DNA of 64,000 nt, from the NCBI GenBank assembly GCA_964016885.1, contig OZ024741.1, forward strand, positions 317,254,001 to 317,318,000. Reading direction: 5' to 3'. The stretch is from Eledone cirrhosa (lineage: Eukaryota). Below the pieces are notes generated by a model. The model made no database searches. It was not told the origin of the DNA and saw nothing but the letters and a program-made list of their open reading frames with translations. Positions 38,087 to 39,083 of the stretch are shown here, in pieces (position 1 is the stretch's first letter; every line of letters starts with the position of its first letter). The position numbers were made by a program, and so were the translations under genes.

Positions 38087-39083
38087 AAAACAAATAACGA
38101 AACGAAATTAAATTTCGTTTCGCTTCTAACTCACTTTTGTATGACTGACGCTTAAACAATTAAGTTAAAGTGTACATCTACATATGTATACGGAAGTATT
38201 GGTATGCATATAAATACACACATGTATACATATGTACATGTACTTAGCTTTTCACTAGACACTTTACAGTGAGTGTCAGCTAGTCTGTATGTAACCACAC
38301 AGGCGGACCGGGTTTTAGAGTCATACGAGTTTTCAAGGAAACACATTTCCTCTATTCTCCAGAGGGCCAGACAGGAATATTGGACTAGTTTCGATGTTAT
38401 TACATCTCATCAGCAATATTTACCCATCTTCCGGCTTCTCTGGAGAATTGTAAAAGCACATATCATTATATGCTTTTTCTATGAAAATTAGTAGTGGGTA
38501 GACCAATTTGCATAGAACGTGAGTCATTGTACGCACCGGTTCAGCGGAAACGATAAAAACAAATAACGAAACGAAATTAAATTTCGTTTCGCTTCTAACT
38601 CACTTTTGTATGACTGACGCTTAAACAATTAAGTTAAAGTGTACATCTACATATGTATACGGAAGTATTGGTATGCATATAAATACACACATGTATACAT
38701 ATGTACATGTACTCAGCTTTTCACTAGACACTTTACAGTGAGTGTCAGCTAGTCTGTATGTAACCACACAGGCGGACGGGGTTTTAGAGTCATACGAGTT
38801 TTCAAGGAAACACATTTCCTCTATTCTCCAGAGGGCCAGACAGGAATATTGGACTAGTTTCGATGTCTGGTCCTCTGGAGAATAGAGGAAATGTGTTTCC
38901 TTGAAAACTCGTATGACTCTAAAACCCGGTCCGCCTGTGTGGTTACATACAGACTAGCTGACACTCACTGTAAAGTGTCTAGTGAAAAGCTGAGTACATG
39001 TACATATGTATACATGTGTGTATTTATATGCATACCAATACTTCCGTATACATATGTAGATGTACACTTTAACTTAATTGTTT
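38087..39083 (-). mobile_element. HHR-bearing 469-bp element (family R2): 1.7 tandem units plus an inverted partial unit, between (TA)n tracts
   Basis: 38087-38555 is repeated at 38556-38866, and 38864-39083 is its reverse complement. Confidence 0.9.
38376..38420 (-). ncRNA. Type I hammerhead ribozyme (family R2)
   Basis: aauauug-CUGAUGA-gaugu aaua acauc-GAAA-cuag-UC-caauauu: perfect 7-bp stem I, 5-bp stem II, GUC cleavage triplet. Confidence 0.92.

Follow-up and report, generated by a model that had tools for sequence, protein, structure and literature searches.

A dispersed hammerhead-bearing repeat of Eledone cirrhosa: a probable non-LTR retrozyme with Penelope-type ends

Metazoan non-LTR retrozymes, of the type of axolotl HHR_Amex1 and newt satellite 2, are described as tandem non-coding units with one canonical type I hammerhead per unit and a weak palindromic stem III, a GC content below 50%, TSDs of more than 4 bp, no LTR, PBS or PPT, a branched self-paired fold, and Penelope-like elements (PLEs) in the same genome (PMC7229834). 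The same paper regards PLEs as strong candidates for retrozyme mobilisation, and a preprint by Li, Clavereau and Pollet (2026; 10.64898/2026.07.22.740005) treats retrozymes as non-autonomous Penelope derivatives on the grounds that, in vertebrates, the two co-occur and share pLTR homology. The retrozyme class and its Penelope link are already in print; the preprint text consulted deals with neither molluscs nor tails, promoters or inverted arms. PLEs leave marks of their own, namely a tail at one end only, an inverted 5'-truncated copy and a bias towards (TA)n (PMC8557442, PMC3846280, PMC11167929), with TSDs of ~8-16 bp; antisense self-priming has also been offered as an origin of their head-to-head structures (PMC3846280). 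Chlamys non-autonomous PLEs such as MRC1 are ORF-less, form multicopy head-to-tail insertions, are moved by PLEs and mostly have a 3' end similar to that of an autonomous family (PMC8557442). Our literature search, whose scope lay outside subscription journals and bioRxiv supplements, found no paper on cephalopod retrozymes and none that describes retrozymes with paired ends or with a promoter.

Here we describe R2, a repeat within a 64-kb stretch of E. cirrhosa DNA (64,000 nt, hereafter the window). R2 shares each of the retrozyme traits listed above, its fold by prediction, and its 469-nt unit compares with 150-450 bp in PMC7229834 and 51-972 in the preprint. It is known here from DNA sequence alone, and the criteria for retrozymes include self-cleavage as well as linear and circular RNA; on its sequence traits, R2 is very probably a member of this class. 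Like Neptune-clade PLEs, it appears to have two internal reverse-transcription starts that give a tail at one end, and it has an inverted 5'-truncated copy, (TA)n targets and TSDs within the PLE range, but it differs from them in having no ORF, a tail of 66-71 nt instead of 30-40, and a canonical rather than a minimal hammerhead. It resembles the Chlamys elements in being ORF-less and in its multicopy head-to-tail insertions, yet it matches none of the seven autonomous families tested at the 3' end. Neither head-to-head arms whose ends are strictly paired nor a U6-like block features in the text of PMC7229834 consulted here. The link between R2 and PLEs is an insertion footprint, with no pLTR homology found among seven autonomous families, whereas the preprint draws its link from pLTR homology and co-occurrence.

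The R2 region (38087-39084) comprises 1.66 copies of the 469-nt unit plus an inverted 221-nt arm, set between (TA)n tracts (Table 1). This bears out the initial annotation, which had placed a non-coding hammerhead element of ~469 bp at 38087..39083, laid out in tandem plus inverted copies with (TA)n flanks: the partial tandem copy measures 311 nt, and the longest ATG frame in the circularised unit, counting both strands, is 64 aa. We count unit positions along the minus (ribozyme) strand, so that window position equals 38556 minus unit position. The 3' end of the full unit (unit position 469, the 'long' end) adjoins the left tract, the 66-nt tail contains a 13-bp hairpin, and the inverted arm overlaps the first arm by 3 nt. 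GC content is 37%, and the unit has no match to PLE proteins.

Table 1. Coordinates of R2, R1 and other features of the window.
Feature	Position	Strand	Remarks
Frame of 366 aa	6857-7960		no Pfam match
LINE-type element, frame of 1,075 aa	8931-12161	-	endonuclease, RT and zf-RVT domains
15-bp minisatellite	17287-19507		148 copies
140-bp repeat	32784-33060		two copies; recurs elsewhere in genome
Older single R1-lineage unit	30842-31288	+	hammerhead 30962-31004; ends in (TA)n
Unrelated type I hammerhead	35335-35396	+	long stem III; apparently solitary, not R1/R2
(TA)n target tract, left of R2	37606-38087		
Full R2 unit, 469 nt	38087-38555	-	RNA strand is minus
R2 66-nt 'tail', unit 404-469	38087-38152	-	spans two putative reverse-transcription start sites
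Extended stem I with UA bulge	38354-38448	-	carries R2 ribozyme; predicted loop 1/loop 2 contact
Intact type I hammerhead of R2	38376-38420	-	
U6-type promoter-like block	38465-38515	-	conserved in R1 and R2; putative function
TATA of block	38465-38469	-	
TATGCAAATT element of block	38506-38514	-	
Second R2 unit, 5'-truncated (unit 159-469)	38556-38866	-	311 nt, 99.4%
Hammerhead 3' half, sole ribozyme part of truncated unit	38845-38866	-	
R2 inverted second arm (unit 183-403)	38864-39084	+	221 nt, 99.1%; ends at 'short' end
(TA)n target tract, right of R2	39083-39117		
R1 array, homologous family	41838-46696		two-armed; 9 hammerheads
3' end (pLTR) of L063 Neptune family	46723-47111	-	continues to ~47900
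L061-family Neptune insertion	57689-59777		two-armed; long end on left, short on right
GIY-YIG fragment of that insertion	58966-59454	-	

The only intact hammerhead in the region is a type I ribozyme built from a 7-bp stem I, CUGAUGA, a 5-bp stem II and GAAA-CUAG-UC, with a predicted cut between 38383 and 38382. Stem II is closed by the loop AAUA and stem I extends beyond the UA bulge, which is the canonical build. Stem III consists of an A-U pair and the palindrome CUAG, and stems of this type are efficient only as dimers (PMC4209133, PMC7229834). The Rfam HH9 model finds the hammerhead with an E value of 8.6e-6 and 31.8 bits, short of its gathering score of 52, and the whole window yields zero Rfam matches at gathering level. 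Rfam miRNA matches were rejected as low-complexity hairpins far under threshold. With one whole and one half ribozyme and a single promoter-like block, the window copy likely gives no monomer circle and is probably a dead end; the source copies would be arrays of at least two whole units.

The window holds a second such array, R1, with its short end on the left and its long end on the right, ~70 nt apart. The palindromic stem III that had been reported as common to both elements is indeed present in each, as GAAA-CUAG followed by UC in R2 but by UA in R1. Likewise, the segment GAAACGATAA..AACGAAA..AATTTC..CTCACT occurs in both, and in R2 corresponds to the reverse complement of the 3' region of the RNA. 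R2 had been called sequence-distinct from R1 with the same architecture; the architecture stands, but the two are more than merely alike, as a collinear alignment over their full length gives 61.5% identity, compared with 50% for shuffles, and a score of 346 against 143.5 ± 12.5 and a maximum of 180 in 200 dinucleotide shuffles. The 303 units cut from fetched loci fall into 10 clusters at 94% identity and two lineages, and when 10 representatives are aligned, the catalytic core varies at a single free position only. Compensatory changes, on both sides of a pair, affect 25 of 159 pairs in the R2 fold, chiefly in stem I, in stem II and in a long-range helix (positions 230-237 with 410-417, 98.7% paired), and represent few independent events because there are essentially two lineages. 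A pattern for the R1/R2 class has 40,556 exact matches in the genome and its reversed control 7, far beyond chance. These comparisons support the view of R1 and R2 as homologous subfamilies of one diversified group of non-autonomous ribozyme retroelements, both non-coding and multimeric, as had been suggested at the outset.

R2 is present at hundreds of sites on at least 10 contigs of the 3.0-Gb genome. With 37 of 733 candidates scored, the search returned at least 292 matches, mostly 98-99% identical, and the ribozyme core has 1,478 exact occurrences (control 0); on these grounds, R2 is a young, dispersed repeat, and the window copy is one recent insertion of it. Within arrays the cores are spaced 469 nt apart. 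Most loci have 1-5 units and one reaches 15 (L092), a sister-subfamily array has 31 units in which blocks of variants recur, and a giant R2-type array of more than 56 kb (G000:C1:95,620,986 to beyond 95,676,900) begins at the short end. The initial annotation had named an outcome that would count against it, in which R2 is simply the pLTR of an autonomous PLE and never forms multimers or circles. The multimer half of this fails, given the genome-wide number of cores and arrays of 1 to >100 units; as to the other half, none of the seven autonomous families compared has an R2-like pLTR.

We surveyed insertion ends in two sets of loci, the 36 best-hit R2 loci and 30 loci taken in chromosome order, 26 of which were counted after removal of one duplicate, one nested locus, one double and the giant array. 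One canonical end stops at unit 468-469 (long) and the other at 397-404 (short). The first set comprises 18 two-armed long+short insertions, 12 one-armed ones and six two-armed ones with non-canonical ends (5 long+other, 1 other+other), and the second comprises 17 long+short, 1 long+other and 8 one-armed. Where both ends of a two-armed insertion are canonical, they are long+short in 35/35 cases (18/18 and 17/17), with zero long+long or short+short among these 35. The arms stand head to head in every two-armed locus of both sets, and the R1 and R2 insertions of the window both obey the pairing. Most canonical R2 ends (88/99) run into TA repeat. TSDs of 12-16 bp are visible at 6/62 loci, three more candidates having been discounted because they are TA runs or lie internally; the remaining loci lie in TA repeat or have none. 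The end pairing and TSDs, like the anatomy, copy number and shared variants of R2, are direct observations. The 5' ends are scattered, which is what a template lacking a 5' end should give; only 1/100 lies within 3 nt of the cleavage site, and the idea that 5' ends fall at this site was rejected. The predicted start site is the 5' end of 3/21 one-armed copies, but a genome-wide test found 11 matches against 14 in the control and this candidate was dropped as well, as was a cluster at unit 257-265 seen in the first set and absent from the second. The fixed 3' ends, scattered 5' ends, TSDs and inverted arms support the earlier classification of R1 and R2 as retroelements.

Variants within arrays bear on the RNA template. 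A variant common to all units is found in 22 of 49 multi-unit loci and 35 of the 54 variants that run through a whole array are present in both arms, while distances are 0.53% within arrays, 0.52% across arms and 1.02% between loci; the shared variants and low cross-arm distance indicate that both arms copy one template variant. Another 16 variants are confined to some of the units of their array, and blocks of variants recur in long arrays, which implies that long arrays also grew as DNA; a single monomer circle fails to explain either observation. The predicted circular fold has a z of -12.3 (reverse strand -8.0) and is 69% paired, with a ribozyme-open fold predicted 2.2 kcal/mol above the minimum. 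Variants, 5' ends and predicted fold are consistent with a circular template, and an uncut multimer is possible as well. A-to-I editing scars are unsupported, with 10 private A>G against 12 T>C changes; among array-wide variants there are 13 A>G and 5 T>C, one recurrent site dominating.

The R2 unit may also hold a promoter. A block of the form TATGCAAATT(A/G)G ... TATA resembles the upstream element of the U6 genes of this genome, which fall into three upstream types with the element at -76 to -78 and TATA near -30. The R1/R2 element also matches that of a single U6atac gene and has no counterpart upstream of U2. When scored with a matrix from three U6 genes, R1 beats 500/500 shuffles and R2 486/500. 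The distance between element and TATA is 42-44 in R1/R2 and 46-48 in U6, i.e. 3-5 nt shorter. A run of T4+ between start and terminator is absent in 8/10 units and present in 2; as a sign of Pol III transcription, the depletion of T runs falls short of significance (shuffle probability 0.05-0.14 each). The T5 run at the R2 long end means that monomer production would need read-through. We regard the assignment of a U6-like promoter block as suggestive only. Newt satellite 2 has an snRNA-type promoter. Metazoan retrozymes in general seem to be without promoters according to a review (PMC7761336). As a side observation, the genome has a tandem U6 cluster (L212 and L216; G000:C19:31.8 Mb) in which some copies carry a tRNA-like SINE at the TATA box, with target duplication.

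A genome search for GIY-YIG domains gave at least 150 places from 10,596 candidates, and the 50 loci that we read are PLEs with RT plus GIY-YIG, most of which we class as Neptune by the CxxxxCxxC linker described in PMC8557442. One Neptune family (L061), whose copies are 96-98% identical in protein and include one near-complete frame, ends in (TA)n at two sites ~65 nt apart; other PLE families of the genome have tails near 40 nt. Long and short ends of the L061 family are combined in 13/14 head-to-head pairs, retrieved with a query that favoured long ends, and the window contains one such insertion (Table 1). The exception (L082) is long+long: its 100-nt Neptune long-end pieces (675-776 and 5264-5366) stand head to head on either side of an R2 array. 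When R1 and R2 were compared with the 3' regions of seven autonomous families, no sequence similarity emerged, and in none of 66 R2 loci does an ORF run in sense into the unit. We leave the helper family unnamed because R1 and R2 resemble neither the 3' regions nor the proteins of these families; tail length points to the L061 family, and a joined locus to the L067 family. At this locus (L173:2656-6390; G000:C1:41.49 Mb), the only such arrangement among 123 loci with retrozyme matches, an R2 long-end arm is joined to a 5'-truncated L067-family Neptune arm. The junction has 41 nt of inverted R2 and no TA tract, and the Neptune arm ends short. That arm is broken, 95-97% identical to related copies, and may predate the R2 arm; the arrangement could reflect a template switch or, alternatively, a second arm that is short, accompanied by the deletion of an older element. 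R1- and R2-like pieces beside PLE ORFs (L071, L072) were considered as pLTRs and rejected, as they are nested behind TA tracts. Elsewhere near Penelope elements (L040, L063, L066, L070, L071, L077) we noted at least five further hammerhead types, some with a long or palindromic stem III. In the window, the L063 3' end faces the R1 long end across a short TA tract.

The reading that we favour, and consider probable, is that R2 is a non-LTR retrozyme with Penelope-type ends, inserted in trans via a probably circular 469-nt RNA, with a Neptune-type Penelope reverse transcriptase/GIY-YIG protein as the likely helper. Transcription of an array of at least two units, for which the U6-like block of each unit may serve as promoter, would be followed by cutting of paired hammerheads via the palindromic stem III and by ligation of the monomer into a circle. 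The Penelope protein would make a staggered cut of 12-16 bp in (TA)n and prime both DNA ends on one R2 RNA, at unit 469 and 397-404. Each cDNA would roll round the circle for a variable distance, the two would be joined head to head, and very long arrays would grow further by duplication at the DNA level. Transcription, cleavage, the circle and the identity of the enzyme are the parts of this scheme that we infer. A more far-reaching version, possible but in our view doubtful, makes R1 and R2 self-sufficient RNA parasites with their own U6-type promoter, ribozyme and two RT starts, of which a dimeric Neptune would copy one circle, its subunits starting at the long and the short site from both break ends. 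If this were true, the R2-Neptune joint at L173 would be a caught template switch that names the helper family.

The same Penelope machinery might instead copy an uncut, linear read-through transcript of an array, with a ribozyme that is weak or protein-dependent. Uncut RNA is the dominant in vitro substrate of anole Penelope, whose ribozyme mutants still inserted (PMC11167929), and 8/9 Xenopus dimers did not cleave in vitro (10.64898/2026.07.22.740005); homogeneous donor arrays would likewise yield array-wide variants, and part-array variants fit the copying of a multimer. However, arms of 10-15 near-identical units (L084, L092) would need 5-7 kb transcripts that pass many ribozymes and T5 runs, 5' ends show no pile-up at the start site, and the circular fold is predicted to be highly stable; we consider a linear template unlikely. 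Much harder to sustain is the idea that an autonomous Penelope family yet unseen has R2 as its pLTR and yields the arrays as ORF-less by-products. A sense ORF is found in 0/66 R2 loci, TA tracts separate retrozyme pieces from PLEs in 4/5 contacts, the autonomous pLTRs found differ from R2 and have other or no hammerheads, and the R2 unit closes on itself in multimers. In favour of the pLTR reading stand the Xenopus data of the preprint, where 24/57 retrozyme families match known repeats and 21 of these 24 are PLEs, matched at pLTRs, and the reach of our own sampling, ~50 of at least 150 GIY-YIG places (10,596 candidates). Least plausible of all is a satellite that spreads at the DNA level, by unequal exchange or reinsertion of circular DNA, with the ribozyme as a relic: one array exceeds 56 kb and the 31-unit sister array has recurring variant blocks, but most loci have 1-5 units with fixed 3' and scattered 5' ends, head-to-head arms, TSDs and TA targets, and the catalytic core is invariant across families that are 61% alike.

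The enzyme that moves animal retrozymes and the site at which it starts have the status of proposals in the literature consulted here. With copies 99% identical, two mapped starts and a candidate promoter, R2 would offer a ready in vitro system for Penelope insertion, and its long/short pairing is common to near-intact Neptune elements of the same genome. R2 would equally be a ready system for rolling-circle reverse transcription. Finally, with ~40,000 ribozyme cores this class is a notable component of the E. cirrhosa genome.
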